The notes under the pieces were generated by a model. The model was given only the letters and a program-made list of their open reading frames with translations. It was not told the origin of the DNA and did no database searches. A stretch of DNA of 63,367 nucleotides from Polyangia bacterium (lineage in GTDB: Bacteria; Myxococcota_A; Polyangia; Fen-1088): assembly GCA_035648655.1 (NCBI GenBank), contig DASRLC010000143.1, positions 1 to 63,367 of the forward strand. Reading direction: 5' to 3'. Positions 31,348 to 60,857 of this stretch are shown here, piece after piece; position 1 is the first letter of the stretch; every line of letters begins with the position of its first letter. Made by a program: the position numbers and the translations under genes.

Positions 31348-33047
31348 GGCGTCTGCTCCGAGAGGGCCGATGGCGGTCGCCCTCTGCCCCGCCGCGAGGC
31401 CGTCCCCGTCGCCAACACGTCGCCGACGATCTGTTGCGCCTCTTCGAGAAGGCGCCGGAGATGCTCCGGGTCCTGGAAGCTCTCGGCATAGATCTTGTAG
31501 ATGCTCTCGGTTCCCGACGGCCGCGCGGCGAACCACCCACTCTTGGTCACCACCTTCAACCCGCCGATGGGAGCGTTGTTGCCAGGCGCGCGCGTGAGAA
31601 CGGCCTCGATCTTTTCGCCCGCCAGCTGGGTGAGCTTGACCTTCTCCGGTGAGAGCGTCGCCAGCAGCTTCTTCTCCTCCGGCGTCGCCGACGCCTCGAC
31701 CCGGTCGTAGACAGGGTCGCCGAGCTCCCGCGTCAGCTCACGGTAGATCTCGCCCGGATCGCGATCCGTCCGGGCCGTGATCTCCGCCGCCAACAAGGCC
31801 GGGACGATTCCGTCCTTGTCGGTCGTCCAGACGCGACCATCCATGCGGCTGAAAGAAGCGCCCGCGCTCTCTTCGCCGCCGAAACCCAGCGAGCCGTCGA
31901 GGAGGCCGTCGACGAACCACTTGAAGCCCACCGGCGCCTCAAAAAGCTTTTGGCCAAGCTTGGCCGCGACGCGGTCGATCATCTGACTGCTCACCACGGT
32001 CTTGCCGATGGCGGCGTCTTTCTTCCACTTGGGCCGATGTTGATAGAGGTAGAAAATTGCGGCGCAGAGGTAGTGGTTGGGCGGTAATAGCCCCGAGCTG
32101 CGGGTCACGATGCCATGCCGGTCGTGGTCCGTGTCGCAGGCGAAGGAAAGGTCGAAGCGGTCCTTCATCGCTATCAGCCGCTGCATCGCATACACCGATG
32201 AGGGATCCATGCGAATCTGACCGTCCCAATCGACGGTCATGAAGCGAAAGGTTGGGTCGACCACCTGGTTGACCACGGTGAGATGCAAACCGTAACGCTC
32301 GCCGATTCGTCCCCAGTAATGAACGCCGGCGCCGCCAAGCGGGTCGACGCCGAGGTTGAGCTTGGCGCCGCGAATGGCATCCATGTCGATCACGCTGGCG
32401 AGATCGGCGACGTAAGTCTCGAGATAATCGTACCGGTGTGTCGTGGAGGCGCCGAGAGCCCGCTGGAAGGGAATCCTCTTCACGCCCAGCAGGCCAGCTT
32501 CGAGTAGGCCGTTCGCTTTCGCCTGGATCCAGTCGGTGACGGCCGATGGGGCCGGTCCACCGCTGGGGGGGTTGTATTTGAAACCGCCGTCGCGCGGTGG
32601 ATTGTGCGACGGCGTAATGACGATGCCGTCGGCCAGCTCTGACTTGCGCCCGCGGTTGTAGGTGAGGATCGCGTGCGAGATGACGGGGGTCGGGGTGTAC
32701 TCGTCCCCCTCGGCGATCATGACCTCCACGCCGTTCGCCGCCAGCACCTCCAAGGCGCTGGCGAAGGCCGGAACCGACAGCGCGTGCGTGTCCATGCCGA
32801 GGAAAAGTCGTCCGTCGATCCCGTGCTCGCCGCGATAAAGGCAAATGGCCTGGGAGATGGCCAGGATGTGCCACTCGTTGAACGCGTTATCGAAGGCAGA
32901 CCCCCGATGTCCCGAAGTCCCAAAGGCAACCCGTTGCTCTGGCACGGAAGGGTCAGGCCTTTCCGTGTAGTACGCCGAGATGAGCCGGGGCACGTTCACC
33001 AGCATCGACGCGTCGGCGGGCTTTCCCGCGAAAGGACTTACCTTCAT
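31344..33047 (-). CDS. pgm: phosphoglucomutase (alpha-D-glucose-phosphate specific)
   Basis: 'VAFGTSGHRGSA' phosphoserine loop, 'CDTDHDRHG', and Pgm-like length of 567 aa. Confidence 0.92.
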   Translation of the reverse strand: MKVSPFAGKPADASMLVNVPRLISAYYTERPDPSVPEQRVAFGTSGHRGSAFDNAFNEWHILAISQAICLYRGEHGIDGRLFLGMDTHALSVPAFASALEVLAANGVEVMIAEGDEYTPTPVISHAILTYNRGRKSELADGIVITPSHNPPRDGGFKYNPPSGGPAPSAVTDWIQAKANGLLEAGLLGVKRIPFQRALGASTTHRYDYLETYVADLASVIDMDAIRGAKLNLGVDPLGGAGVHYWGRIGERYGLHLTVVNQVVDPTFRFMTVDWDGQIRMDPSSVYAMQRLIAMKDRFDLSFACDTDHDRHGIVTRSSGLLPPNHYLCAAIFYLYQHRPKWKKDAAIGKTVVSSQMIDRVAAKLGQKLFEAPVGFKWFVDGLLDGSLGFGGEESAGASFSRMDGRVWTTDKDGIVPALLAAEITARTDRDPGEIYRELTRELGDPVYDRVEASATPEEKKLLATLSPEKVKLTQLAGEKIEAVLTRAPGNNAPIGGLKVVTKSGWFAARPSGTESIYKIYAESFQDPEHLRRLLEEAQQIVGDVLATGTASRRGRGRPPSALSEQTP

Positions 33048-35902
33048 GACTCTTTCGCCGGCAGTGCCCGTTCGATCGCCTTCGACAGGGCGTCGAGTCC
33101 GCTTCGGACATCTGCGCCGAGATGAACGCGCAACGCCCGCCGGTCGCGCTGCACCAGGACCCGGAAGTCCCCCAGCGCCTGCGCCGCCTTCACGACGCCA
33201 AAGCTGAAGCGATGACCGGGGATCTGGAGATCCTGCGCATCGTCGCAGGTCAGCTGCAGGAAGACCCCGCTCGGAGGTCCGCCCTTGTAGGCCTGCCCCG
33301 TTGAATGAAGGAACCGGGGACCAAAGCCAACACAGGTGGCGACCCGACGGGAATCCCGGACCGTGCCCCGAATCGCCTGGAGCTGGCGATCATGCCGGTC
33401 GTTGCGCTCAATGTAGGCGAGCAACGCGAAGTAGTCGTCGGGTCCCAAGCGCTGGAGGTGGGTCCGCAAGTATCCATGCAGCGTCCTATCAGACCCGGCC
33501 GCCCGATCGAGCGCCAGCTTGTTCTTCTCGTCGGCGAATAGCGTGAGCGGGCCATCTTCGCAGAACGGGATCTCCCGCGGGAGCGCGCCGGTCTTCTCGT
33601 AGGCTTTGGTCAGCGTACGTGCCGCGACCTTGCTCGCCTCGACGTCGGGCTGGTTGAAAGGGTCGATGCCGATGATCGCGCCCGCCACCGCCACCGCGAT
33701 TTCCCAGCGGAAGAACTCCTGTCCGAGATCGTGGGGATCGGCGAGCGCAATGCGCACGACCGGCTGTCCGGCATTCTCGAGCGCGTCGACCGCGGCATCC
33801 TGCGCAGCGTCCGGTGCAGCATCGAGCCGAAGGTACGCGAACAGCCGATCGTTGCCGTAGACTTCGGGCGCGCCGAGGGGCTCACGATCGACGGGGATTA
33901 TTCCCTTGCCCACCTTGCCGGTCGATTCGGCGAGGAGCTGCTCGAGCCACGCGCCGAGCTGCGCAATGCCTGGAGAGGCAATGAGGGTGACTTTGTCGCG
34001 GCCGGATCCGACCGACGTCCCGAGGATCGCGCCGAGCAGGACGCCCGGATTCTGCTCGGGCGGAACGCATGACGCGCACGCGTGCGCCATGATCGCGGTG
34101 CGGTCGAGGAAGCGACCCACGTCGACACCCATGACCGCCGCCGGCACCATGCCGAAGTTGGAGAGCGCGGAATAGCGTCCGCCGATGCCGGGCACCCCGG
34201 AGAAGACCCTTTCGAACCGTTTCTCCTCGGCGATCTTTTGCAGGGCGGAGCCCGGGTCGGTGACCACGATGAAGTGCTTCGGTGCCCTCCCGTCGCCGAC
34301 GATCTGGCGAACGCGATCGTAGAAGTAGTCCTTGAGAATATTGGGCTCCAGTGTCGTGCCGGACTTGCTAGAGACGATAAAGAGTGTCTTCGGAAGGTCG
34401 ATGCGGGCTTCCATGGTCCGGATCTGCGCGGGATCGGTCGAATCGAGGACCAAGAACTCCGGATAACCGCCGATGGGTCCGAACGTTCGCGCCAGGACAT
34501 CGGGACAGAGGCTCGATCCGCCCATCCCCAGCACGACCGCGTATTTGAAGTTGCTCTGGCCCTCCTTGGCGAACGCCGCCAGGCCTCGAGCCAGAGTTTG
34601 CTCCCCGTCGGTACTGTCCAGCCAATCGAGCCACTGGTTCTCGTCGTGCCCCGTCCAGAGCGTCGCGTCGCGCGCCCAAAGCCGCCGCACCTTCCCGCCG
34701 GTGCGCCAGTCCTCGATCGTCGCCTTGACCTCCTCATCGAGCGAGGTCGGCAGTCGATAGCTCATCCGGTCGATAGCCGACCTGAGCACGCCGGCACGTT
34801 TCTTCTCGATCGATCCCAGGAGAGCATCGAACGCCGCGGAGAACCCGCTGACACCCTCGTCGAGGAGGCGCGCGGTCAGGTCGTCGATCGAGATCCCAGT
34901 ACCGGCGAGCGTGGCCAAGACCTGTCTGGCGTCGTCTATGTGTTGGTCGAGCTGGTTCCCTGCTTTGCCATGGTCACGGAAGGCGTCGAGCGTCGACGGT
35001 GGGATCGTGTCGACGGTGTGGGGCCCGATCAGCGATTCGACGTAGATCACGTCGCGAAAGCGCGGATCCTTGCTGCTCGTGCTCGCCCACAAAAGCCGTT
35101 GTGGGTGAGCGCCGGACGCGGCCAGCGACGTCCAGCGCGGGCTGCCGCAGACTTCCTTCCAGTCCTGGTAGGCGAGCTTGGCGTTGGCGATGGCCACCTT
35201 GCCGACGAGATCGCGCAGCGTGGCCTGCTCCGTGGCCGGCGCCGATCTGGCCCGAGCCTCCAGGATCGGATCGACGAGAACGTCGAGACGACTGACGAAC
35301 ATACTGGCCACGCTGGCGACGCGGCTCAGATCTCCCCCGCCCGCGCGGAACGCCTCGAGGCCGTCCATGTAAGCTTCGGCGACCTGGCGACACACGGCGC
35401 GTGAGAAGAGCAGCGTCACGTTGACGTTGATCCCCTGGCCGATGAGCTGTTGAATCGCCGGAATTCCCTCGGGCGTCGCCGGAACCTTGATCATGAGGTT
35501 GTCGCGACGAACGGTGCTCCACAGGCGAACGGCCTCATCGATGGTCGCCTGGGTGTTGTGCGCGAGATAGGGCGAGACCTCCATGCTGACGAACCCGTCG
35601 CGTCTGACGAACTCGAGGTAAACGGAATGGAGGATGTCCGCCGCCTGCTGAATGTCCTCGACGGCTAGCTTTTCGTAGATGGTCGAGGCCGTTTCGTCGT
35701 GGCGATTCTCATAACGCTCCAGAGCTGGACCGTAGTCCGTGCTGCCGGCGATGGCCTTTTCGAAGATGGACGGATTCGAGGTCACGCCGCGGATGCCGTC
35801 CTCCTTCACCAATCGCGCGAGCTCACCGCTTTGAAGGAGGTGGCGTCGGATGTAGTCGAGCCAGACCGACTGGCCGCACTCCTGAATCTCATTTATTCCC
35901 AC
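33044..35902 (-). CDS. bifunctional transaldolase / glucose-6-phosphate isomerase
   Basis: N-terminal 'QSVWLDYIRR', 'GVTSNPSIFEKA' and 'MIKVPAT' (Tal), followed by a ~550-aa PGI-like half. GTG start at 35902. Confidence 0.9.
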   Translation of the reverse strand: MGINEIQECGQSVWLDYIRRHLLQSGELARLVKEDGIRGVTSNPSIFEKAIAGSTDYGPALERYENRHDETASTIYEKLAVEDIQQAADILHSVYLEFVRRDGFVSMEVSPYLAHNTQATIDEAVRLWSTVRRDNLMIKVPATPEGIPAIQQLIGQGINVNVTLLFSRAVCRQVAEAYMDGLEAFRAGGGDLSRVASVASMFVSRLDVLVDPILEARARSAPATEQATLRDLVGKVAIANAKLAYQDWKEVCGSPRWTSLAASGAHPQRLLWASTSSKDPRFRDVIYVESLIGPHTVDTIPPSTLDAFRDHGKAGNQLDQHIDDARQVLATLAGTGISIDDLTARLLDEGVSGFSAAFDALLGSIEKKRAGVLRSAIDRMSYRLPTSLDEEVKATIEDWRTGGKVRRLWARDATLWTGHDENQWLDWLDSTDGEQTLARGLAAFAKEGQSNFKYAVVLGMGGSSLCPDVLARTFGPIGGYPEFLVLDSTDPAQIRTMEARIDLPKTLFIVSSKSGTTLEPNILKDYFYDRVRQIVGDGRAPKHFIVVTDPGSALQKIAEEKRFERVFSGVPGIGGRYSALSNFGMVPAAVMGVDVGRFLDRTAIMAHACASCVPPEQNPGVLLGAILGTSVGSGRDKVTLIASPGIAQLGAWLEQLLAESTGKVGKGIIPVDREPLGAPEVYGNDRLFAYLRLDAAPDAAQDAAVDALENAGQPVVRIALADPHDLGQEFFRWEIAVAVAGAIIGIDPFNQPDVEASKVAARTLTKAYEKTGALPREIPFCEDGPLTLFADEKNKLALDRAAGSDRTLHGYLRTHLQRLGPDDYFALLAYIERNDRHDRQLQAIRGTVRDSRRVATCVGFGPRFLHSTGQAYKGGPPSGVFLQLTCDDAQDLQIPGHRFSFGVVKAAQALGDFRVLVQRDRRALRVHLGADVRSGLDALSKAIERALPAKES

Positions 35903-35938
35903 GCAAACCTCCTCGCCCCTCGATCACCTTTGCCGGCC

Positions 35939-36067
35939 TCACGACGGGCTCTTCGCCGGCGTCACCCAGGAGCCGCTCGTAGCCTGCAGCGCCGGAAAGA
36001 TCTTCTTGTGCGCGAGATCTCCGGTCGCGCCGAAAAAGATCAAGGCGTCCGACGAATCCCCCGTCAT
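35939..36067 (-). pseudogene. N-terminal remnant of glucose-6-phosphate dehydrogenase
   Basis: The 42-codon ORF 'MTGDSSDALIFFGATGDLAHKKIFPALQA...' carries the Zwf NADP-binding N-terminus (GATGDLA.RK..PAL), then diverges and stops. The roughly 450 remaining codons are absent. Its ATG shares one base with the gnd stop (TAATG). Confidence 0.6.
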
Positions 36068-37068
36068 TAGTGCTTCTCTTCGTGTCCGCCGAACTGATAT
36101 CGCAGCGCGGAGAGCACCTTGTCGGCGAAGTCTTCTTCGCCCCGCGACGCGAACCTTTGTGCCAGCGCCGTGCTCAGGACCGGAGCGGGGACACCCTCGT
36201 CGATGGCCGCCTTGAGAGTCCACCGGCCCTCTCCCGAATCGGACACGTGGCCCGCGAACCCGCTCAAGTCGGGGCTCTTCTTCAGCGCGGCGGCGGTGAG
36301 ATCTAGGAGCCATGAACCGATCACGCTGCCGTGCCGCCAGGCTTCGACGATATCGGGAAGGTTCAGGTCGTATTGATAGAGCTCGGGGTGACGAAGCGGC
36401 GCCGTCTCGGCGTCGACGACCCGCTTGGCATTCCCAGCGTTGGCGTGCCGAAGAATGTTGAGCCCTTCGGCGTACGCCGCCATGACCCCGTATTCGATCC
36501 CGTTGTGAACCATCTTGACGAAGTGCCCGGCTCCGGACGGTCCGCAATGGATGTACCCCCGTTGCGGCGGCCGACCCTCATCTCGGCGCCCCTTGGTCGC
36601 GTCGTCCCCGGGTGCCAGGGCGGCAAAGATGCCATCGAGCCGCTTGACGACGGCGGGGCTGCCCCCGATCATCTGGCAGTAACCGCGCTCGAACCCCCAA
36701 ACGCCGCCCGAAGTGCCGACGTCGACATAGTGGACTCCGCGCTCGCCGAGCGTCTTCGCGCGGCGAATGTCATCGTGATAGTACGAGTTCCCCCCATCGA
36801 TGACGGCATCGTCCGCGGTAAGGTGCGGCACCAGCTCCCCGAGGGTGGCCTCTACAACCGCGGCAGGCACCATGATCCAAATCGCCCGCGGTGTCTCCAG
36901 CTTGGCGACCAGATCAACAAGCGAGCTGGCGGCGACCGCACCCGCCTTGACCAGATCCAGCCCCGCCTCTGGATGAACGTCGAACACCACGCACCCGTGG
37001 CCGGCTCCGAGCAGACGCCGGACCATGTTCGAGCCCATTCGACCGAGCCCAACCATTCCAAGTTTCAT
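36067..37068 (-). CDS. gnd: 6-phosphogluconate dehydrogenase, decarboxylating (short Gnd/YqeC type)
   Basis: 'MKLGMVGLGRMGSNMVRRL' Rossmann N-terminus from Met 37068, and 'GHFVKMVHNGIEYG'. Confidence 0.88.
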   Translation of the reverse strand: MKLGMVGLGRMGSNMVRRLLGAGHGCVVFDVHPEAGLDLVKAGAVAASSLVDLVAKLETPRAIWIMVPAAVVEATLGELVPHLTADDAVIDGGNSYYHDDIRRAKTLGERGVHYVDVGTSGGVWGFERGYCQMIGGSPAVVKRLDGIFAALAPGDDATKGRRDEGRPPQRGYIHCGPSGAGHFVKMVHNGIEYGVMAAYAEGLNILRHANAGNAKRVVDAETAPLRHPELYQYDLNLPDIVEAWRHGSVIGSWLLDLTAAALKKSPDLSGFAGHVSDSGEGRWTLKAAIDEGVPAPVLSTALAQRFASRGEEDFADKVLSALRYQFGGHEEKH

Positions 37069-37186
37069 ACTGTTCCCCCGTTCGTCGCCGCTCCGCGTCC
37101 GCACACCGTGGATCGCCTTCGTGACGTTGGGCGTTCATTGCGCTGTAGCCTCAACGCCCTCGCCCAACTGCACCGCAATCTCCCAG

Positions 37187-37335
37187 ACAATCTCCTGTCG
37201 CTGGCGCCCAGCAACTCTCCCTACAGATACGCACCTCCGAGCATTGGGGCCATTCGGGTCTCCCCCGTGTCGGTTGTAAGGGGTTCCGCGAGGGAGGGCA
37301 TTTTCTTCAAAGATTTCGATGTGCTCGACGTCACG
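37187..37335 (-). promoter_or_regulatory. conserved non-coding upstream element, copy 1 (upstream of the gnd array)
   Basis: The reverse complement matches 53241-53387. The first 35 nt are 34/35 identical (cgtgacgtcgagcacaYcgaaatctttgaagaaaa). Further blocks are cccttacaacc, ggggagaccc and gctcggaggtgcgYatctgtaggga (24/25). All frames carry stops, so it is not coding. Confidence 0.55.
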
Positions 37336-37528
37336 AAGGCTACCCAGATCGCCGGGGCCTGGTCTGATGGCTGTCTACGAGCGACGGGGATTGGCCGACC
37401 GACGCGTTCGTGTACCGCCTGCACCCGTCGGACCACACCCGGATACCGTTCGCGCACAGGGCGAAGCATGACGGCGCCGTGAACGACCTCGCCGATTCCA
37501 CGACCGGCGAGGCCTCGAATCGTCGGAT

Positions 37529-51906: not shown

Positions 51907-53151
51907 TCAGCGTCGCGGAGCCATCCGGGACCGGGTTGGAAGATCGCGCGTCGAGGCCGGGGCGCGAGCGACCGAGGGCGGACTGCTCGGCACCCGGGCG
52001 TGGATCTCCATCTGCATGCTCGAGGGCGTCTCGCTCACGATCTCTATTCCAGCTGGGGCCGTCGTCACGATCCGATAGGTGTGGAGACCGGCGCTCGTCC
52101 CGGACAGGTCGACGAACGAGACCACGGAATCTGGCGGCAGCACCTCGAGCTCGCGCCGCGAGCTGCGCAGCTCGACGGCGACGCTGGTGTACCGAGGTGG
52201 GTCGAAGACCAGCCCGTCATTCACCCCTCGAATTTCGAGCGGCACGACGCGCGTCATTGCATGCGAGCGGTCGAGCGCCAGGGCGGCCCAAGCCGCGAGC
52301 ACACCGCCAAAAATCACCAGATGCGGCCACTGGCTGACAAGACGCACCCGCCTCTCGGCGGCACGTCGGGGCGCGGCGGACGGTCCTTCGGGGCGGGCCT
52401 TTGCCAGTATCTCTCGCAGGTGGCCCGGGTCCCGCATCAGCTTCATCGCGCTCCCCACCGCCAGATGAACCGTTCCGTGTTCCTCGCTCACGCAGATGAT
52501 CAGCGCATCGGTGGCCTGCGCCAACCCAACCGCGGCGCGATGCCGGGTGCCGAAGCTTGCGTCCTCGGTTTCGGTCGCCAGGGGCAACACCACCCCGGCT
52601 CGGGTCAGCCGATCGGCGGCGACGACGACGGCGCCGTCGTGTAAGGGGGACGCCGCCGTGAAGATGGCCTCGAGCATTTCGACCGAAAGCCGCGCATCGA
52701 CGAGAATGCCCTTGGTCGCGAGATCGAAAATGGAATCGTGGCACGGCAACACGATGAGGGCACCCTTTCGTCTGGCGGCCAACGCGAAGGCCGCCGCGAC
52801 GACAATTGTATCGGTGTCGTCGAGCGTCTCGCCGGCAGTCCGTCTCGTCAGCCAGCGCAGCGGGCTGACGCGGCTGAGCCCACGTCGAATCTCGTGTTGG
52901 AAGATCACCACGACGACGATGGTCGCGACCGCACTCACGGCGGACAGGAGGTACGACGTCAGAATGAGACCGAGGTGGCTGGCGATCCACGACACAGCCA
53001 ACAGGGTCAGAAGACCGCAGGCCACCTGAACCGCGATCGTGTGCTTGAGCCATCTGTAGGCCCACGAGAAAAGAGCCGTCAGAACCAATACGTCGACGGC
53101 GTCTTGCCAGCGAAGGCCGTGGGTCAAAACGGAGAGGGCGACTCGGTGCAT
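51907..53151 (-). CDS. cdaA: diadenylate cyclase CdaA fused to a YbbR (CdaR-type) domain
   Basis: Three N-terminal TM segments, DAC motifs 'PLHDGAVVV' and 'GTRHRAAVGL', a fourth TM 'HLVIFGGVLAAWAALAL', then 'VPLEIRGVNDGLVFDPP..VAVELRSSRRELEVLPPDSVVSFVDLSG..AGLHTYRI', typical of a YbbR repeat. Confidence 0.85.
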   Translation of the reverse strand: MHRVALSVLTHGLRWQDAVDVLVLTALFSWAYRWLKHTIAVQVACGLLTLLAVSWIASHLGLILTSYLLSAVSAVATIVVVVIFQHEIRRGLSRVSPLRWLTRRTAGETLDDTDTIVVAAAFALAARRKGALIVLPCHDSIFDLATKGILVDARLSVEMLEAIFTAASPLHDGAVVVAADRLTRAGVVLPLATETEDASFGTRHRAAVGLAQATDALIICVSEEHGTVHLAVGSAMKLMRDPGHLREILAKARPEGPSAAPRRAAERRVRLVSQWPHLVIFGGVLAAWAALALDRSHAMTRVVPLEIRGVNDGLVFDPPRYTSVAVELRSSRRELEVLPPDSVVSFVDLSGTSAGLHTYRIVTTAPAGIEIVSETPSSMQMEIHARVPSSPPSVARAPASTRDLPTRSRMAPRR

Positions 53152-53240
53152 GAGCGTTCTACAGCTAGCGTTAGCATGCCCGACTTCCCGCTCACACTCA
53201 GCGGACAGCTTCTCAGCCCGTGAGCTCTGCCGGCAGTCGC

Positions 53241-53387
53241 CGTGACGTCGAGCACACCGAAATCTTTGAAGAAAAAATCATTCCCTAGGGAATCCCTTAC
53301 AACCGGCGCGGGGAGACCCAGAGTGGTCCCAACGCTCGGAGGTGCGCATCTGTAGGGAACGTTTGCCGAGGCGACAGCGGAGACGGT
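53241..53387 (+). promoter_or_regulatory. conserved non-coding upstream element, copy 2 (upstream of the PRC/BON/HdeA array)
   Basis: Matches the reverse complement of 37187-37335 (see copy 1). Contains the CRP/FNR-like dyad cGTGA-N6-GCACa (53241-53256), the A/T-rich tttgaagaaaaaat, and a perfect 14-bp palindrome attccctagggaat (53280-53293). Confidence 0.55.
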
Positions 53388-53506
53388 CCCGCGATTTAAC
53401 CACTTTGCTGGACCCGTCGCGGCCACGAACGATCTCGTCGCTCGGCGCGACGCCTCGAGCGACGCAGCTATCACCCATTCCGAACCGCCCGAACGGAGGG
53501 ACTCCC

Positions 53507-54316
53507 ATGCTACGAAGTCTAAAGGATCTCGAACGATACAAGGTGACCGCCACCGACGGCGACGTGGGACACGTGGTGAATTTTCTCTTGGACGACGAGC
53601 GGTGGGTCGTTCGCTATCTGGTCGTCGAGACCGGGGGCTTCTTCAATCGGCCGCGGGTGCTCATCTCGCCAATCTTTTTCGGTCAGGTCGAATGGGCGAC
53701 CCACTGCTTCAGCTTGGCGTTGACGGTGGACAAGGTCAAGAACAGCCCGAGCCTCGACGTGGACATGCCGGTCTCGCGGCAGCATGAGCGAGACTATTAC
53801 GGCTACTACGGATATCCCTATTACTGGGGATATTTGGCGCCCTGGGGCATGGGTGCCTCCCCCGCCTTGCTCGCAGCCGGCCGGAGAAACGAAGAGCCTT
53901 CTCCGCACGTCGAAGAGACCAGCGGTGATGTTCACCTTCGGAGCGTCAAGGAAGTCCGCGGATACCACGTTCAGGGAGCCGACGAAGCGATCGGTCACAT
54001 TGACGACTTCATCGTCGACGATGAGACCTGGGAAATTCGCTACCTAGTCGTGGACACCAGCAATTGGTGGTTCGGCAAGCGGGTGCTGGTTTCGCCACAC
54101 TGGGCGAGCCGCGTGAGTTGGTCGGAGCGCAAGGTCCACCTCGACCTGTCGCGACAAGCGATCAAGGACAGTCCTGAATGGAATGCAACCGTCGGCGTCA
54201 ATCGGGAGTACGAGACACGTCTGTATGACTACTACGGACGGCCGGCGTACTGGTCGCCCAGCGATCGACCTTCAAGTGCCGAGGGACGAGACGCTTCGGC
54301 ACACCACCATGGGTAG
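53507..54316 (+). CDS. tandem PRC-barrel domain protein
   Basis: ATG at 53507 follows GGAGGG. 'LKDLERYKVTATDGDVGHVVNFLLDDERWVVRYLVVETG' is repeated as 'VRGYHVQGADEAIGHIDDFIVDDETWEIRYLVVDTS'. Confidence 0.8.
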   Translation: MLRSLKDLERYKVTATDGDVGHVVNFLLDDERWVVRYLVVETGGFFNRPRVLISPIFFGQVEWATHCFSLALTVDKVKNSPSLDVDMPVSRQHERDYYGYYGYPYYWGYLAPWGMGASPALLAAGRRNEEPSPHVEETSGDVHLRSVKEVRGYHVQGADEAIGHIDDFIVDDETWEIRYLVVDTSNWWFGKRVLVSPHWASRVSWSERKVHLDLSRQAIKDSPEWNATVGVNREYETRLYDYYGRPAYWSPSDRPSSAEGRDASAHHHG

Positions 54317-54374
54317 CGGACCACTTCGTGGAGCGTCCACGGCAGGCAAACAACGGCGGAAAGCGAGATAGGCG

Positions 54375-54632
54375 ATGATTCATTCGTGGTGGTTATTGTG
54401 GATGGTAATGATGCTCATTTTTGTCATTTCGCCGATTGGGTACGGCTGGGGTTACCGGGGCTGGGGTCCACCGTACCCGAGATATATCCAGAGACGCCGA
54501 GGCCTACGCGCCGTCACAGCCGGCGCTTCCACGGGCTTCGACCACCACGCCTGGGGGCGCGGCGGTGACCTGGTCTGGATGGTCTTCGCCATCGGAATGA
54601 TCTGGGTGGTCGCGGCTATGTGGTGGCGCTAG
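54375..54632 (+). CDS. small 2-TM membrane protein
   Basis: 85 aa with Trp-rich hydrophobic ends 'WWLLWMVMMLIFVISPIGYGW' and 'LVWMVFAIGMIWVVAAMWW'. No family recognised. Confidence 0.45.
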   Translation: MIHSWWLLWMVMMLIFVISPIGYGWGYRGWGPPYPRYIQRRRGLRAVTAGASTGFDHHAWGRGGDLVWMVFAIGMIWVVAAMWWR

Positions 54633-54656
54633 TTGAACCACGTCAAGGGACGACGA

Positions 54657-56231
54657 ATGACATCGTCACGGCTCACGCGACGCCCACGGGTTACGGTCCA
54701 TTGCAGATGGCTCCGCCTCATCCTCGTCTCCTCGGGCGCTCAACTCTGCATCGCGTCGGTGTCACACGCCGCCACCAAGACGCCGACCATAACGGATCGG
54801 GGTCTCACCTCTGCGGTTGAATCGAGTCTACGATACGACAAGGGGGTATCGCCCGTTGGCGTAGACGTCGATACCAGTCAGGGCATCGTCACGCTGTCGG
54901 GGACGGTTCACGACCTCCTCGCCAAGGAACGCGCCCTCAGGATTGCCGAGAGCATTCGAGGGGTGCTGGGGGTAATTGACCGCACGGTCGTCACGCCGGT
55001 GTCCCGCTCCGACGAGGACATCCGCAAGACCATCCTTTGGTCCCTGCTGGAGGATCCAGCGACGAAGGCCTACCAGATTGGCGTTTCGGTGAAGGGCGCC
55101 GTAGCGACGTTGACAGGTACGGTTGGGTCGTATGCAGAGCGGCAGCTCGCCGAACGGCTCGCCAAGGGTGTCAAGGGCGCCAAGGACGTGCGCAATGACA
55201 TCACGATCAGCTACTTCCAGAAACGCACCGACGCGGAAATCGCCTCCGACGTAAAGGCCCGCTTTCAGTGGGATATCTGGCTCAACGGCGATGCGCTCAC
55301 CGCCGCGGTGAAGGACGGCAAGGTGACCGTGAGCGGTACGATCGGCAGCGCGATCGGCAAAGAACGGGCGGCCGATGACGCCTGGGTCAGCGGCGTGATG
55401 TCGGTCGACGACACGGCCCTCAAGGTTGAACCACGTACGGGCCACGACGCACGCCACCAATTGAAGTACGTGGTCAAATCGGACGCCGATATCAAGCTGG
55501 CGATACAGGCTGCGTTTCGCCTCGACCCTCGGGTGGCGGCCTTCGCCCCCGACGTGACGGTCGAAGGCGGCGGAGTCATTCTGGGCGGCTCGATAGGAAA
55601 CCTGAAGGCGAAGGCCGCGGCCGAACAGGACGCCCACAATATCGTGGGCGTCTGGCGGGTCGACAACCTGCTGACCGTCCGTTCGAAAGGCTCGTTCGTC
55701 GATTCGGACCTGGAGAAGCAGCTAAAGACGGCTGTGGCGTGGGATCCCGTCCTGGACCGCTCGACGATCGATATCGCCGTCATCAATCGCGTCGCCTACC
55801 TCTCGGGAGAGGTTGATTCACGTTTCGAAAGTGTCGAAGCCGAGGATGTCGCGTCGCGAATAGACGGCGTGCTCTTGGTCCGCAACCATCTGAAGGTCGA
55901 GCCGGCCGATGTGTTCATCTACGACGACCTACCTTTCTTTTCGTACTTCGACTGGCCCTACTACCACCGGTCGTCCTCCGACATGTACCAAGCTCGGGAG
56001 CCGGAGCCATACCTGAGCGACGCGCGGATCAAAAAGGATATCGAGGACGCGTTTTTCTGGAGTCCGTTCGTGGATCGCGGCGCCATCACGGTGGCGGTCC
56101 ATGGAGGTGTTGCGACTTTGACAGGAACCGTCGGCAATTGGATCGGCTGGAGAGAGGCCGACAAGGACGCACGCAAGAACGCCGGGGACGTCCTCAATCG
56201 ACTGACCATCAAGCCGGGTGCCTGGTGGTGA
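54657..56231 (+). CDS. secreted protein with six BON (OsmY-type) domains
   Basis: Six repeats of the pattern 'D..I...V......D......I.V.V..G.VTLSG.V.......A.......GV..V.N.L.V'. Signal-like N-terminus. Start is 54633 or 54657. Confidence 0.85.
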   Translation: MTSSRLTRRPRVTVHCRWLRLILVSSGAQLCIASVSHAATKTPTITDRGLTSAVESSLRYDKGVSPVGVDVDTSQGIVTLSGTVHDLLAKERALRIAESIRGVLGVIDRTVVTPVSRSDEDIRKTILWSLLEDPATKAYQIGVSVKGAVATLTGTVGSYAERQLAERLAKGVKGAKDVRNDITISYFQKRTDAEIASDVKARFQWDIWLNGDALTAAVKDGKVTVSGTIGSAIGKERAADDAWVSGVMSVDDTALKVEPRTGHDARHQLKYVVKSDADIKLAIQAAFRLDPRVAAFAPDVTVEGGGVILGGSIGNLKAKAAAEQDAHNIVGVWRVDNLLTVRSKGSFVDSDLEKQLKTAVAWDPVLDRSTIDIAVINRVAYLSGEVDSRFESVEAEDVASRIDGVLLVRNHLKVEPADVFIYDDLPFFSYFDWPYYHRSSSDMYQAREPEPYLSDARIKKDIEDAFFWSPFVDRGAITVAVHGGVATLTGTVGNWIGWREADKDARKNAGDVLNRLTIKPGAWW

Positions 56232-56296
56232 TGACGGTCGACGCCGGTTGATGCAAGCCCATCGATTAGCGACCCCGTGACATTCAAGGAGACATC

Positions 56297-56662
56297 ATGA
56301 CCAAGCTAACTCTACTGACAATTGGGATATCCGTCGCCCTCGCGGGCTCGACTCTGGCGGCGGCGCCCGCACCCACCGGCAGCGCCGACAAGACCGCCAA
56401 GACGGACAAGACCGCCAAAACGGCCAAGGGGCCCAACCCGATCAAGATGACCTGTGAGGATTTCCTCACATTGGAGGACGTTGCGAAGCCGAAAGTCGTC
56501 TACTGGGCCGAAGGATTTGACCGCAAGGGCAAAGCAGACGACGCCACGGTCGACGTCGAAACGACCGACCGTCTCGTGCCCGTGATCGTCGAAGTCTGCC
56601 AGAAGGAGCCGAAGGCCTCGTTCTGGAAAAAGATGAAGGCCGAGTTCAAGAAGGTCTTCTGA
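56297..56662 (+). CDS. HdeA/HdeB-family periplasmic acid-stress chaperone-like protein
   Basis: Signal peptide, then 'MTCEDFLTLEDVAKPKVVYWAEGF..KGKADDATVDVE....LVPVIVEVCQKEPKASFWKKMKAEFKK'. This aligns with E. coli HdeA 'WTCEDFLAVDESFQPTAVGFAEAL..KDKPEDAVLDVQ....VTPAIVQACTQDKQANFKDKVKGEWDK', including both Cys. Confidence 0.72.
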   Translation: MTKLTLLTIGISVALAGSTLAAAPAPTGSADKTAKTDKTAKTAKGPNPIKMTCEDFLTLEDVAKPKVVYWAEGFDRKGKADDATVDVETTDRLVPVIVEVCQKEPKASFWKKMKAEFKKVF

Positions 56663-56711
56663 TCGTCGAAACAATCCATCCGCTGACGCATTTACCAGGA
56701 AGAAGGCGACC

Positions 56712-56933
56712 ATGTCGAACCACAATTCCCATTCGGCCCATCACCACGTCCGTCCGGACGAGCCGGTGGTGACTCCCGTTCAACCGTCGAGCAAGCATTC
56801 CGCGTCGTCCGAAAGCATCGCTGCGCGAGCCTACGAGAAGTTCGTTGCCCGCGGGCGGACGCACGGCGGCGATCGAGAGGATTGGGCGGAGGCAGAGCGG
56901 GAGTTGACCCGCGGCGAGGCAGGGAAGGCTTAG
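56712..56933 (+). CDS. DUF2934-family small protein
   Basis: 'IAARAYEKFVARGRTHGGDREDWAEAEREL' matches the DUF2934 core. Confidence 0.65.
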   Translation: MSNHNSHSAHHHVRPDEPVVTPVQPSSKHSASSESIAARAYEKFVARGRTHGGDREDWAEAERELTRGEAGKA

Positions 56934-57012
56934 GAAGCGGGCGAATCCATTCCAAAGTGACGGCTATGGGGAAGACTACCGGCGTGGGTGGAGAGATGGG
57001 CCGCGACAATCG

Positions 57013-59469
57013 GTGGAGCCCTGTCCCGAAGCGAACGGACATTCGGTGACCTTCCCCCCTCGTCTCGCACCCGGCGGACCGGGAGGTCGGGCGCGTTGGA
57101 CCTCCAGCGCCAAGAGTGGCGTTGGTACGGCGCTCAGCAACAAGAGTCGCGTCTGGTTCACCTTGAGCCACGGGATCCTCAACGAGATCTATTATCCCCG
57201 CATAGACCAGGCCTGTATCCGCGACATGGGGCTCATCGTCACGGACGGAGCCACCTTCTTCTCGGAGGAAAAGCGCGATGCCGACTCTCGCGTTCGCTGG
57301 CTGGCCGATGGTGTTCCAGCGTTTCACCTGACCAATACCGCCCGCGATGGCCGCTACAAACTCGACAAAGAAATCGTAGCCGATCGGGATCGCGACACGG
57401 TCTTGCAAAGGACCCGCTTTCTGCCGCTGCGGGGCGCTCTCTCCAGCTACCACCTTTACGTGTTGCTCGCGCCGCACCTCGGAAACCAGGGAGGCGGCAA
57501 CAGCGCCTGGGTGGACGACTTCGAAGGGACGCCCTTTCTATTCGCACGACGGAACGGTAGTGCGCTCGCCTTGGCGTGCTCCGCCGTATGGACTAAGCGA
57601 TCGGTCGGCTATGTGGGATCGTCGGACGGCTGGCAGGATCTGAAGGCGCACAAGAAGATGACCTGGGAATATTCCCACGCCGAGAACGGCAACGTGGCGC
57701 TGGTCGGTGAGATCGACCTGATCGCGTCGCAAGGAGAGTTCGTCTTGGCGTTGGGGTTCGGCAGCCAACCGGAGGAGGCGGCTCGAAACGCCGTCACGAG
57801 CCTGCGGGGCGGCTTTGACGGAGCGAAAGAAGGGTTTCTCGCCGGGTGGCAGGACTGGGCCGCGGCCCTCGCGCAGCCGAAGAAGGGCTCCACCACACCG
57901 AATGGCCTGTCGCAGAAGAGCCTGGCTGTTCTGCGGTCACATGAATCCAAAATGGCGCCGGGCGGGCTCATCGCCAGCCTTTCCATACCTTGGGGCTTCA
58001 GCAAAGGTGACAACGACCTCGGTGGCTACCATCTGGTCTGGTCGCGGGACATGGTGGAGACGGCAGGCGGCTTGTTGGCCGCCGGTGCGCACGACGAGGT
58101 ACGTCGCGTCCTGGCCTATTTGCGCGGAACCCAGCAAACCGATGGCCACTGGTCGCAAAACATGTGGCTGGATGGCTCGCCGTATTGGAACGGCATTCAG
58201 ATGGACGAGACGGCGTTGCCCATCCTCCTCGTGGACTTGGCCTTTCGCCAAAAGGCACTGACGAAGGCCGAGGTGGTTCAGCTATGGACCATGGTGCGGC
58301 GCGCAGCCGGTTACCTAGTGCGTAACGGCCCGGTCAGCCCGCAGGATCGCTGGGAAGAAGATCCCGGCTATTCGCCGTTTACCGTCGCAGCGCAAATCGC
58401 CGCGCTCCTGGCGGCGGCGGATCTGGCTGATTTGAGCAATGAGGCTGCCCTCGGCAGCTACCTCCGCGAGACAGCCGACGTCTGGCACTCATCCATCGAC
58501 CGCTGGATGTACGCTTCGGAGACGGATTGGTGCCGGCGGTACGACGTCAAGGGCTACTACGTCCGAATCGCACCCAAACAGACGGGCGGAGCCGACGCGC
58601 GCTTCGAGAGCGGCGTCCGGATCAAGAACGTCGCGGCCTCCGAGGACACCCTGGCCGCCATCCATCTGGTGAGCCCCGACGCCCTGGCGCTGGTGCGCTT
58701 CGGCCTCCGCGCCGCGGACGATCCGCGGATGCGCGACACGACGAAGGTCATCGACGCGTTGCTCAAAATCGAGACGCCGACCGGACCGACGTGGCATCGA
58801 TATAACGGCGATGGCTACGGCGAGCACGAGGACGGGACGCCGTTCGACGGAACCGGGATTGGTCGGGGCTGGCCCCTGCTGACCGGCGAGCGGGCCCATT
58901 ACGAGCTGGCGCGGGGACAGGTGGACAGCGCGAAGGCTCTCTTGGCGACGATGGAATCCTTCGCCAACGAGGGCGGCCTGATCTCGGAGCAGGTATGGGA
59001 CTCGCCAGACATCGCGGCCCACGAGCTCCACCTCGGCCGGCCATCGGGTTCGGCCATGCCGCTCGTGTGGGCGCACGCCGAGCACCTCAAGCTGCGACGC
59101 TCGCTGGAAGACGAGCGCCTCTTCGACTTGCCGCCACAGACAGTCCGGCGGTACCTGACCGACCACACCGAGTCCCCCCGTATGATCTGGCGCTTCAACC
59201 ACAAGATCCGATCGATGCCGCCGGGAAAGCTGTTGCGCATCGAAACGCTGGCGCCGGCCGTCGTTCACTGGAGCGCCGACGACTGGCGTACCGTCCAGGA
59301 CGCGACGACCCACGATGCCGGCTTGGGGATTCATTTCGCCGATCTTACGACCAGAGCGCTTCCTGAAGGACAACGCGTTTTCTTTACGTTCTACTGGCCG
59401 CACGGCGATCACTGGGAAGGTACGAACTTCACGGTCGCGGTCGGGTCCCTTGGCGTCGCCTCCATCTGA
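57013..59469 (+). CDS. GH15 glucoamylase / glucodextranase-type glycoside hydrolase
   Basis: N-domain 'VWFTLSHGILNEIYYPRIDQA' and catalytic (alpha/alpha)6 region with 'HLVWSRD' and 'DRWEEDPGYSPFT' (the WEE general-acid context). Confidence 0.85.
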   Translation: MEPCPEANGHSVTFPPRLAPGGPGGRARWTSSAKSGVGTALSNKSRVWFTLSHGILNEIYYPRIDQACIRDMGLIVTDGATFFSEEKRDADSRVRWLADGVPAFHLTNTARDGRYKLDKEIVADRDRDTVLQRTRFLPLRGALSSYHLYVLLAPHLGNQGGGNSAWVDDFEGTPFLFARRNGSALALACSAVWTKRSVGYVGSSDGWQDLKAHKKMTWEYSHAENGNVALVGEIDLIASQGEFVLALGFGSQPEEAARNAVTSLRGGFDGAKEGFLAGWQDWAAALAQPKKGSTTPNGLSQKSLAVLRSHESKMAPGGLIASLSIPWGFSKGDNDLGGYHLVWSRDMVETAGGLLAAGAHDEVRRVLAYLRGTQQTDGHWSQNMWLDGSPYWNGIQMDETALPILLVDLAFRQKALTKAEVVQLWTMVRRAAGYLVRNGPVSPQDRWEEDPGYSPFTVAAQIAALLAAADLADLSNEAALGSYLRETADVWHSSIDRWMYASETDWCRRYDVKGYYVRIAPKQTGGADARFESGVRIKNVAASEDTLAAIHLVSPDALALVRFGLRAADDPRMRDTTKVIDALLKIETPTGPTWHRYNGDGYGEHEDGTPFDGTGIGRGWPLLTGERAHYELARGQVDSAKALLATMESFANEGGLISEQVWDSPDIAAHELHLGRPSGSAMPLVWAHAEHLKLRRSLEDERLFDLPPQTVRRYLTDHTESPRMIWRFNHKIRSMPPGKLLRIETLAPAVVHWSADDWRTVQDATTHDAGLGIHFADLTTRALPEGQRVFFTFYWPHGDHWEGTNFTVAVGSLGVASI

Positions 59470-59483
59470 CGCGGGCACGACGG

Positions 59484-60857
59484 ATGGCACCTAAAGCCGG
59501 GTCGCAGGTAACCGGGTTCGTATATGTCGCGGTCGGCGTCGCGGCTATCGGCGGCCTGCTCTTTGGCTATGATACCGGCGTCATTTCCGGGGCGATACTG
59601 TTCATTACGCGCCAGTTTTCCCTGTCGGCGACAATGGAAGAGGTCGTCGTTAGCTCCGTTCTGGTTGGCGCTGTCATTGGAGCCGTCATCGGCGGTGTCT
59701 TGACCGACCGCTTTGGGCGCCGCACGATGATAATCGTAGCTGGCATCATCTTTACCGGGAGCGCAATCGGCACGGCGCTGGTACCGTCGGTGACCTGGTT
59801 GATTGCGGCCAGGATGGTAAGCGGCGTCGGCATTGGCATCGCGTCGTTCATTTCTCCCATGTACATCGCCGAGCTGGTCCCAGCAAAGGTTCGCGGTGCC
59901 CTGGTGGCGGTCAACATGTTGGCGATCACCACTGGCATCGTGGTCGCCTACCTGGTGGACTATGCGTTGTCTGGCATCCAGGGATGGCGATACATGTTTG
60001 CTTTCGCGGCCATACCGTCAGCCGGCCTGGTCATCGGAATGTGGCGGCTGCCTGACAGCCCACGCTGGCTGATAAGCAAGGCGAAGATCGACGAAGCGCG
60101 AAAGGTATTGCAGCGCGTTCGGACCGCCTCAGACGTGGGGCCAGAAATCGCAGACATCCAGCAAAGCATGAAAAAGCAACGCCAAGGCGGGATGGCCGAG
60201 CTCTTTGCCCCATCCATCAGGATGCCTTTGATCGTCGGCCTGGGGCTGGCCGTCTTTCAGCAGATAACGGGCATCAACACCGTCATCTACTATGCTCCGA
60301 CCATTTTCAAGTTCGTGGGCATCAGCGGTACGGGTCCAGCGATCCTGGCCGGCGCCGCGCTGACCATAGTGATGTGGTTATTTCATATATTGGCCATCTT
60401 CTTGCTGGATCGCGTCGGCCGACGTCCGCTATTGTTAGTCGGCGTCGCCGGGCAAATCGTCGGCCTGGGGATCCTGGGGGCCTCTTTCGAGCTCCAGCAG
60501 TTGGCGAGTATAAAGAGCTATCTGGCGCTGGGCGGCCTGGGTATCTACGTAGCGTGTTTCGCCTTTGGGCTGGGGCCGATCTTCTGGCTGCTGATTTCCG
60601 AGATTTATCCGCTCGAGGTCCGCAGCGCGGCGATGAGCGCGGTGACGGTTACCAACTGGGGAATGAACCTGGCCGTCGCCGTGACATTCTTGACTCTGGT
60701 CGGCGTTCTGGGGCGCGCGGGGACCTTTTGGTTGTACGGAGTAATCGCCGTCGGAGCCTGGATCTTTTTCTACCTGCGGGTGCCGGAGACGAAGGGCAAA
60801 ACCCTCGAACAGATTGAAGAGCACTGGCGAGGGGGAAAGCCCGCACGGGCATTGTAG
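59484..60857 (+). CDS. MFS sugar porter (sugar:H+ symporter)
   Basis: 'GYDTGVISGA', 'DRFGRR', 'PDSPRWL' and 'PETKGKTLEQIE'. 14 nt after the GH15 stop. Confidence 0.9.
   Translation: MAPKAGSQVTGFVYVAVGVAAIGGLLFGYDTGVISGAILFITRQFSLSATMEEVVVSSVLVGAVIGAVIGGVLTDRFGRRTMIIVAGIIFTGSAIGTALVPSVTWLIAARMVSGVGIGIASFISPMYIAELVPAKVRGALVAVNMLAITTGIVVAYLVDYALSGIQGWRYMFAFAAIPSAGLVIGMWRLPDSPRWLISKAKIDEARKVLQRVRTASDVGPEIADIQQSMKKQRQGGMAELFAPSIRMPLIVGLGLAVFQQITGINTVIYYAPTIFKFVGISGTGPAILAGAALTIVMWLFHILAIFLLDRVGRRPLLLVGVAGQIVGLGILGASFELQQLASIKSYLALGGLGIYVACFAFGLGPIFWLLISEIYPLEVRSAAMSAVTVTNWGMNLAVAVTFLTLVGVLGRAGTFWLYGVIAVGAWIFFYLRVPETKGKTLEQIEEHWRGGKPARAL

Follow-up and report, generated by a model that had tools for sequence, protein, structure and literature searches.

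Heat-shock promoters of the sigma-32 (RpoH) type consist of two hexamer-like blocks with a 17/18-bp spacer; in the alpha-proteobacteria their consensus reads CTTG-N17/18-CyTATnT, with a -35 element of the CTTGAA kind, and in E. coli the sigma-32 consensus is CCCTTGAA-N13-15-CCCCAT. Autoregulated sigma factors that are dedicated to a general stress regulon are EcfG of the alpha-proteobacteria and SigB of Bacillus, the latter in conjunction with the RsbR stressosome. Dimeric regulators of the CRP/FNR family act on operators like TGTGA-N6-TCACA of E. coli CRP, and myxobacteria employ developmental regulators of this family, among which MrpC of Myxococcus xanthus binds TGTYN8RAC (PMC4320627). Here we analyzed positions 53,241 to 53,387 of a 63,367-nt contig (DASRLC010000143.1, in its full length referred to as the window) of an uncultured bacterium of the class Polyangia. 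The initial annotation had noted a CRP/FNR-like dyad, an A/T-rich tract and a perfect 14-bp palindrome within this stretch, and had proposed that a dimer on the dyad couples a stress array to an energy array. We found that the stretch is the second copy of a duplicated promoter segment in this myxobacterial genome, and that this segment probably serves a stress operon and a sugar-metabolism operon by way of a heat-shock-type sigma factor.

The stretch lies, as annotated, in a 355-nt divergent spacer. To its left is the diadenylate cyclase gene cdaA (51907-53151, minus strand), which encodes DAC and CdaA_N domains, and to its right PRC-barrel, BON and HdeA genes follow each other on the plus strand from 53507 (Pfam). 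Copy 2 of the repeat covers 53241-53380 and copy 1, on the minus strand, 37199-37335; the repeat measures around 140 nt and shows 84% identity over 141 nt. Copy 1 is located upstream of gnd and a tal-pgi fusion gene, in the same orientation as these genes. A BLAST search of the complete assembly (6.05 Mb, 663 contigs) recovered the full repeat only as the two window copies. Taken together, we consider it rather probable that the segment is a duplicated, lineage-restricted promoter that is likely read by a sigma-32-like factor, that the gnd operon was split off from the stress operon, and that the left arm of the segment is specific to this species.

The promoter family and its geometry

When the repeat was compared with the 89 genomes of the same GTDB family by BLAST, its core (query positions 47-110) was the only part recovered and the dyad never was; the two matches, from two congeners, precede groEL and an SPFH/Band_7 gene. 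An exact-pattern scan turned out to be too strict (4 sites only) and the family was collected with a sequence-only covariance model, of which a broader version was built from 37 sites. Around 35-40 sites were obtained in this way; the broader version located the family in 11 of the 26 genomes of the genus with 1-13 copies in each, next to a few weak single matches in other genera of the GTDB family. The copies are strongly clustered and often occur as back-to-back divergent pairs. Six sites were found in the genome under study: the two window copies and one each on contigs C395, C119, C186 and C419.

The 25 members from outside the window yield the consensus GGGGAATCCCtTACAG, N4, C, N, CGGG, N3, (T/A)yCgGA.TGG, N20, TAT. 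Within these members nothing is conserved upstream of position -9, counted from the anchor C of CTTACAG, and because the dyad corresponds to -55 to -40 on this scale, both the dyad and the A/T-rich tract fall outside the family motif. The right part of the flagged stretch (53288-53355) is a member of the family, and its elements, together with those of copy 1, are as follows:

53288-53302, plus strand: blocks 1-2, GGGAATCCCTTACAA (consensus GGGGAATCCCtTACAG), near-invariant in the 25 non-window members, at about -72 to -58 from the putative start site
53309-53313, plus strand: block 3, CGGGG, with positions +13 to +16 conserved
53317-53329, plus strand: block 4, with the putative -35 hexamer TGGTCC (53324-53329); the T of TGG stands at +27/+28 in 26/29 members
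53341-53355, plus strand: block 5, GGTGCGCATCTGTAG, with the putative -10 hexamer CATCTG (53347-53352), nearly the same as the -10 of clpB
37199-37335, minus strand: copy 1, with the dyad at 37320-37335, the upstream box at 37305-37318, blocks 1-2 at 37274-37288, the putative -35 at 37247-37252 and the putative -10 at 37224-37229

Blocks 1-2 are the most information-rich part of the family; they are kept in the promoters of orthologous PRC-barrel genes and recur as a variant before a sigma factor gene (see below). Spacing between the blocks is rigid, with 23 nt from the T of TGG to the first T of TAT in 20 of 26 members, so the spacer between the hexamers TGGyCn and TATnnn measures 17 bp, a fixed -35/-10 distance as in promoters of the sigma-70 family. 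In several members the ATG follows only 22-35 nt after the TAT. On this geometry the transcription start of copy 2 would be located near 53358-53360 and that of copy 1 near 37216.

The promoters of the orthologous PRC-barrel genes in G073 and G078, the two closest species, contain the box and have the TAT at +50 (CTAGAA or CTACAA ... GCTATAT), without the dyad and without the A/T-rich tract. The motif was absent before the 78 other PRC-barrel genes, so that of the 80 PRC loci inspected only these two counterparts possess it. The closest PRC homologues on record derive from Myxococcales, Polyangiaceae or Polyangia metagenome-assembled genomes from fen, bog and soil. On inspection a sigma-54 promoter was rejected, being incompatible with the GG/GC spacing and with the invariant A at the -13 equivalent. 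A sigma-70-like promoter was found in neither window spacer, and a housekeeping promoter in the dyad/A-tract arm was thereby discarded; neither spacer contains a terminator either.

The candidate sigma factor

A variant of the module (GGGAGAACCACTACG ... GGGGG ... GCGCTATTG) is positioned directly before the gene of a 284-331-aa sigma factor, which contains regions 2, 3 and 4 as well as an RpoH box (QRKLFFSLR) and finds its best NCBIfam matches in RpoH/sigma-32 (TIGR02392, 211-227 bits; NF005143, 203-224 bits). The variant lies 10-30 nt upstream of the sigma gene in G078, G066, G067, G071 (two genes) and G000, the genome under study. The orthologue of the genome under study (C419:11010-11864) shows 57-59% identity and has the variant around 25 nt before its ATG; the initial annotation had seen no regulator gene in the window, which holds, and this best candidate is indeed on another contig. 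Given that the variant module precedes the sigma factor's own gene, autoregulation is suggested.

Across the genus, true orthologues of the sigma factor were defined by at least 59% identity and at least 364 bits. Such an orthologue was present in 9 of the 26 genomes, all nine of which also contain the motif, and of the 17 genomes without it 15 are motif-negative. This co-occurrence is what an autoregulated sigma factor with its regulon would show.

The assignment of the -10 element is connected to a classical heat-shock gene of the same organism. The 15-mer GGTGCN[TC]ATCTGTAG occurs exactly three times in the genome, once in each window copy and once immediately before clpB, with its end 6 nt from the ATG; the estimated chance expectation of this coincidence is about 0.02. 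The clpB gene (C319:7421-10030, minus strand) is an 869-aa ClpB-like open reading frame, assigned by its N-terminal sequence and length. No other single observation speaks as strongly for the putative -10. The clpB -10 hexamer TATCTG ends 9 nt before the ATG, a distance which suggests that the clpB mRNA is leaderless or nearly so. In the -35 region the picture is mixed: the family hexamer yTGGTC matches CTTGTC of clpB at 5/6 positions when one extra spacer base is allowed, the PRC orthologues read CTAGAA and CTACAA, and the strict consensus is not enriched (see below).

The family resembles sigma-32 promoters in its two hexamer-like blocks and their spacing, in a -10 (GC.TAT.T) that is near-identical to that of clpB, in targets that include groEL and genes for membrane or protein quality, and in the candidate sigma factor, which carries the RpoH box and is apparently autoregulated. 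It differs from them in a -35 of yTGGTC instead of CTTGAA, and in a 16-nt conserved upstream box, GGGGAATCCCTTACAG, plus the CGGG block, both of which are foreign to the sigma-32 promoters described. The candidate itself differs from RpoH proper in being a divergent paralogue that scores below the curated cut-offs. Moreover, unlike a pure heat-shock set, the regulon has the appearance of one for general stress or dormancy (PRC, BON, HdeA, DUF2934, DUF5670, RsbR-like, pentose-phosphate and glycogen genes). Most likely, the family promoters would be read by RNA polymerase with the divergent sigma-32-like factor encoded on C419, which may also control its own gene through the variant module, while the upstream box would probably be bound by a further protein or make an extended contact.

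The genome contains at least five RpoH-like sigma paralogues (on C419, C547, C403, C479 and C435), the one on C547 being the orthodox RpoH paralogue. On two of these contigs, C479 and C547, genes for DUF5670 (lmo0937-like) proteins accompany the paralogue, and these genes lack the canonical motif, which suggests parallel, paralogue-specific regulons.

Origin of the two copies and rival readings

In G078 and G073 a gnd orthologue (87-90% identity) follows directly behind the PRC-barrel and miniprotein genes, on the same strand. In the window gnd is separated from these genes, and the 50 nt between gnd and copy 1 align with the 3' end of the miniprotein gene of both relatives (z = 9.7 and 7.2; score 38 versus a shuffle maximum of 23); this relic showed no similarity to the miniprotein gene of the window itself, whose 3' end differs. 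The gene order in the relatives and the relic before gnd together indicate that an ancestral operon was split. On this evidence an ancestral promoter-PRC-miniprotein-gnd operon broke within the miniprotein gene, and its gnd half came to lie behind a duplicate of the promoter segment. It follows from a split operon with a duplicated promoter that the coupling of the two arrays, as formulated in the initial annotation, was right in substance: both operons carry the same promoter module and correspond to a single operon in the closest relatives, so that the shared input is the module and not the dyad. The features concerned are:

53507-60857, plus strand: operon behind copy 2 with genes for PRC-barrel, miniprotein, BON (six), HdeA and DUF2934 proteins, a GH15 glucoamylase and an MFS sugar transporter (Pfam)
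33044-37104, minus strand: beginning of the operon behind copy 1, with gnd (36067-37104) and the tal-pgi fusion (33044-35902) (Pfam)
37142-37192, minus strand: remnant of the ancestral miniprotein gene (its 3' end) and of the spacer to gnd, marking the breakpoint of the split (local alignment)
53241-53256, plus strand: CRP-like dyad CGTGACGTCGAGCACA in copy 2, with which the duplication begins on the left, in agreement with copy 1 at 16/16 positions
53258-53271, plus strand: species-specific upstream box CGAAATCTTTGAAG, with AATCTTYG at 53261-53268, recurring at other sites of this genome
53280-53293, plus strand: 14-bp palindrome ATTCCCTAGGGAAT, the right half of which overlaps block 1

The miniprotein (54375-54632 in the window; L069 and L070 in G078 and G073, respectively) is an 85-aa protein with two transmembrane segments (MxxxWLLWM...GYGWGYRGWGPPYPRYIQRRR...) that is conserved behind the PRC-barrel gene and lacks a Pfam annotation. 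Its 3' end was replaced at the breakpoint in the genome under study (...AAMWWR* versus ...HWGWGLRR*).

Within the left arm (53241-53275) 34 of 35 positions are identical between the copies, as compared to 71% of the family-variable core positions and 58% of all neutral-like positions, which corresponds to a P of around 1e-4 to 1e-7. AATCTTYG occurs 164 times in the ~6-Mb genome, and at four of the six family sites it is found at -35, -35, -38 and -37 from the anchor, where 0.005 would be expected by chance. The duplication does not account for two of these four sites, C119 and C186, and no congener member of the family has the box. Its recurrence at independent promoters and the identity of the left arm make a species-specific upstream site around CGAAATCTTTGAAG likely, judging from the letters. 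The only public match of a 22-mer from the left arm, in a metagenome, is unrelated coding DNA, which prompted the idea of an antisense coding relic. Long open antisense frames indeed span both copies (53124-53519, minus strand; 37061-37482, plus strand) and encode similar peptides (...FFKDFxVLDVT...). Both are open and without a Pfam family, and they are best seen as shadow frames that are most likely due to GC-richness, so the coding relic was rejected.

The dyad and the palindrome are real as letters, yet they neither define nor explain the element. The dyad is identical in copy 1 (37320-37335), it is followed by the A/T-rich TTTGAAGAAAAAAT, and the palindrome is perfect in copy 2 and imperfect in copy 1, all as reported. 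The palindrome is incidental: 17 perfect 14-bp palindromes occur in the window, the left half is conserved in neither copy 1 nor any other family member, and the right half, GGGAAT, is kept as part of the family box GGGGAATCCC. For the dyad, one could envisage that a dimer of the CRP/FNR family, for instance an MrpC-like protein, binds CGTGA-N6-GCACA far upstream of both promoters and in this way co-regulates the stress and energy operons. The organism is a myxobacterium and the dyad precedes two co-regulated operons, resembles the E. coli operator (4/5 plus 4/5, hence 8/10 half-site positions), agrees with the MrpC site at 5/7 specified positions by our own count, and belongs to an arm that is better preserved than the neutral-like positions. 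Nevertheless, its symmetry, as read from the letters, is limited to GTG/CAC and two-fold symmetric half-sites are lacking. TGTGA-N6-TCACA with up to two mismatches was found 9 times in the window as against 13.3 +/- 3.8 times in shuffled sequence, and the 111 near-matches of the 16-mer in the genome (up to three mismatches) resemble, by eye and unmapped to open reading frames, GC-rich coding-type sequence. The comparison of orthologous spacers, which the initial annotation had itself put forward as a refuting test, speaks against it as well, since the dyad is absent upstream of the PRC and gnd genes of G073 and G078. It is likewise absent from C119, C186, C395 and C419, and the approximately 30 congener members have neither a CRP-like site at a consistent position nor an A/T-rich tract. 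In addition, the centre of the dyad would be around 109 nt upstream of the putative start site, farther out than class I sites usually lie. That the dyad is the same in both copies is a consequence of the segmental duplication, and its preservation could equally stem from a gene-conversion tract or from constraint on the adjoining AATCTTYG box. The 16/16 identity may reflect a site specific to the two promoters, hitch-hiking beside that box or a conversion tract. On balance, a CRP/FNR-type dimer as the coupling factor is unlikely.

For the core itself the preferred reading, a promoter used by a sigma-32-like factor, has to be weighed against three others, and several observations count against it. 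The scores of the candidate (203-227 bits) are lower than the curated NCBIfam cut-offs of 323 (TIGR02392) and 241 (NF005143); in view of its best match to RpoH, we therefore regard it as a divergent sigma-32-like paralogue. G061 (89% complete) and G072 (73% complete) are motif-positive and have no detectable orthologue of the factor, and the genomes that combine sigma factor and motif form one subclade, so their co-occurrence is not phylogenetically independent. Across the genome the strict pattern CTTG-N17/18-[CG]YTATNT is found 11 times and its reversed control 25 times, hence without enrichment, and the resemblance to sigma-32 promoters consequently rests on the clpB promoter and the geometry; the start site and the -35 and -10 elements are putative. 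The site on C395 has no obvious downstream gene and faces the 3' end of a DUF1415 gene. Furthermore, the blocks could be assigned otherwise: GGGAAT or CCCTTACA would be the -35 of an extracytoplasmic function (ECF) or sigma-32 type and CGGG or yCCGGAyT its -10, or the box would be a repressor operator and the promoter would be read by another sigma factor. Indeed, GGAAT-N16-CGGGT resembles ECF layouts, CCCTTACA-N14/15-CCGGAT is loosely similar to the E. coli sigma-32 consensus, and the box is palindromic (GGGGA-A-TCCCC), and a similar sequence, GGGATCCC, occupies the middle of a palindromic leader that follows several members. These assignments explain neither the rigid spacing of the TAT block (+50) nor why it equals the -10 of clpB, the adjacent and co-occurring sigma gene is sigma-32-like and not ECF, and the spacer of an ECF promoter is normally unconserved; we hold them to be improbable. 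Transcription of the core as a cis-regulatory leader, be it a riboswitch, a thermometer or a protein-binding RNA, from a promoter in the dyad/A-tract arm would fit the sense orientation of the core upstream of operons with leaders of about 110-150 nt in the window, the similar nested hairpins into which the window copies fold, with a few apparently compensatory differences, and the strong local helices in some members (e.g. L060:7120). It is also favored by a swap test, in which the 5' variable segment paired slightly better with its own than with foreign 3' segments (-12.5 versus -11.7 kcal/mol, p ~0.03), a marginal signal that counts against a plain promoter. Two Rfam scans gave no match at the gathering threshold and merely noise at E <= 10. 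Folds were not more stable than those of dinucleotide shuffles on either strand (mean z -0.34 sense, -0.21 antisense), RNAalifold, which was run on 5 and on 38 sequences, detected 0 conserved pairs on the 38, and the candidate local hairpin was paired in 41% of the cells versus 45% in shuffles. Given also that no conserved promoter precedes the core and neither spacer holds a sigma-70-like one, that the ATG follows so closely upon the TAT in several members, and that the TAT block equals the clpB -10, a leader RNA is very unlikely. Finally, a small mobile or selfish element, like a miniature inverted-repeat transposable element, that is intergenic by chance would be multi-copy, clustered and confined to one lineage, as the repeat is. 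The repeat nearly always faces a downstream gene at short distance (C395 being the exception), only some 65 nt are conserved between differing flanks, and the duplication in the window is explained by the operon split; terminal inverted repeats and target duplications were not apparent in the aligned members, for which no dedicated search was run. This last explanation is barely credible.

Target genes and neighbouring loci

In the congeners, the genes behind family promoters include those for GroEL, Band_7/SPFH, DUF5670 (lmo0937-like, MLWTIAV...) and DUF2934 proteins, a recurrent 65-aa protein, an RsbR-like stressosome protein (RsbRD_N and STAS domains), an OmpA-family protein and a large protein that by eye is cyclic-glucan-synthase-like, without a Pfam hit. 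The sites in the genome under study precede the PRC/BON/HdeA/GH15/MFS operon, the gnd/tal-pgi operon, a GAF-HisKA kinase gene (C119), a cyclic-glucan-synthase-like gene (C186, by eye) and the sigma gene (C419). A CRP site in this position would have been ordinary; the promoter signature that underlies it is well defined and would label an entire stress regulon of uncultured myxobacteria from soil and peat. The signature ties the PRC-barrel, BON, HdeA-like, DUF2934, DUF5670 and 65-aa families to the mobilisation of carbohydrates (GH15 glucoamylase, gnd, tal-pgi), and connects these poorly understood stress proteins to one candidate sigma-32-like factor, which places proteins without a known function in a regulon that can be tested. 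In addition, the window provides a clean example of a promoter duplication that rescues the distal half of a split operon, and the candidate may exemplify the specialisation of an RpoH paralogue with an unusual extra promoter box. The scope of these statements is one subclade of a single genus, and beyond that they describe an association at the level of sequence.

In gene content (PRC-barrel, BON, DUF5670/lmo0937-like and RsbR-like), in the location of the sigma gene beside regulon genes and in the motif shared by many small stress genes, the family is comparable to the EcfG and SigB regulons. What sets it apart from these regulons is a sigma factor of the sigma-32-like and not of the ECF or SigB kind, and a promoter motif that is longer and of another sequence. 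The RsbR-like gene, which is located downstream of a family promoter (L062:1356-2231, G074:C44), hints at partner-switching control within the regulon.

Several congeners contain stress islands with 7-9 family promoters per 12-40 kb (G071:C10, 493-506 kb; G074:C21, 116-128 kb; G073:C5, 335-374 kb), many of them in back-to-back divergent pairs around 100 nt apart. The sigma gene is situated inside the island in G071 and G073; in G074 (C21:112946-113803) it precedes the cluster by around 2 kb. The orphan site on C395 (7846-7932, minus strand; L019:3347-3433) is a good member of the family (E ~1e-7) next to a convergent DUF1415 gene; it could be the promoter of a small or antisense RNA, or else a copy in decay.

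Several family promoters are followed, at about +85 to +110 from the anchor, by a leader of the form GGGCGGCGGGAATCGCC-GRAGCGGGATCCCGCTYC-GGCG that contains a perfect inverted repeat of around 26 nt (G000 C186 ~640-700 (L095), L052, L051, L055, L026, L057, L027 and L060). Its centre, GGGATCCC, resembles the promoter box GGGGAATCCCC. The conserved palindromic leader has no match in Rfam, and could be an operator or an RNA hairpin. A more elaborate scheme, which we put forward tentatively and hold to be somewhat doubtful as a whole, combines these elements in a dedicated regulon for general stress or dormancy that the subclade would have evolved: an autoregulated sigma-32-like factor would recognize the -35 and -10, a second factor the 16-nt palindromic box GGGGAATCCCTTACAG, the core of which recurs in the leader, and in the species under study AATCTTYG, perhaps together with the dyad, would provide a third input. 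If true, this would amount to a two-component promoter code that is undescribed for sigma factors of the RpoH family.

In layout the palindromic leader is analogous to the operators of HrcA, the controlling inverted repeats of chaperone expression (CIRCE), as both are long perfect inverted repeats situated between a stress-gene promoter and the start codon; the sequences differ and the likeness is one of layout alone. CIRCE-like repeats proper, TTGGCACTC-N9-GACTGCCAG, were recognized by eye before one groES-groEL operon of the genome under study (C389 ~1940-2160, minus strand), and HrcA control therefore seems to coexist with sigma-32-like systems.

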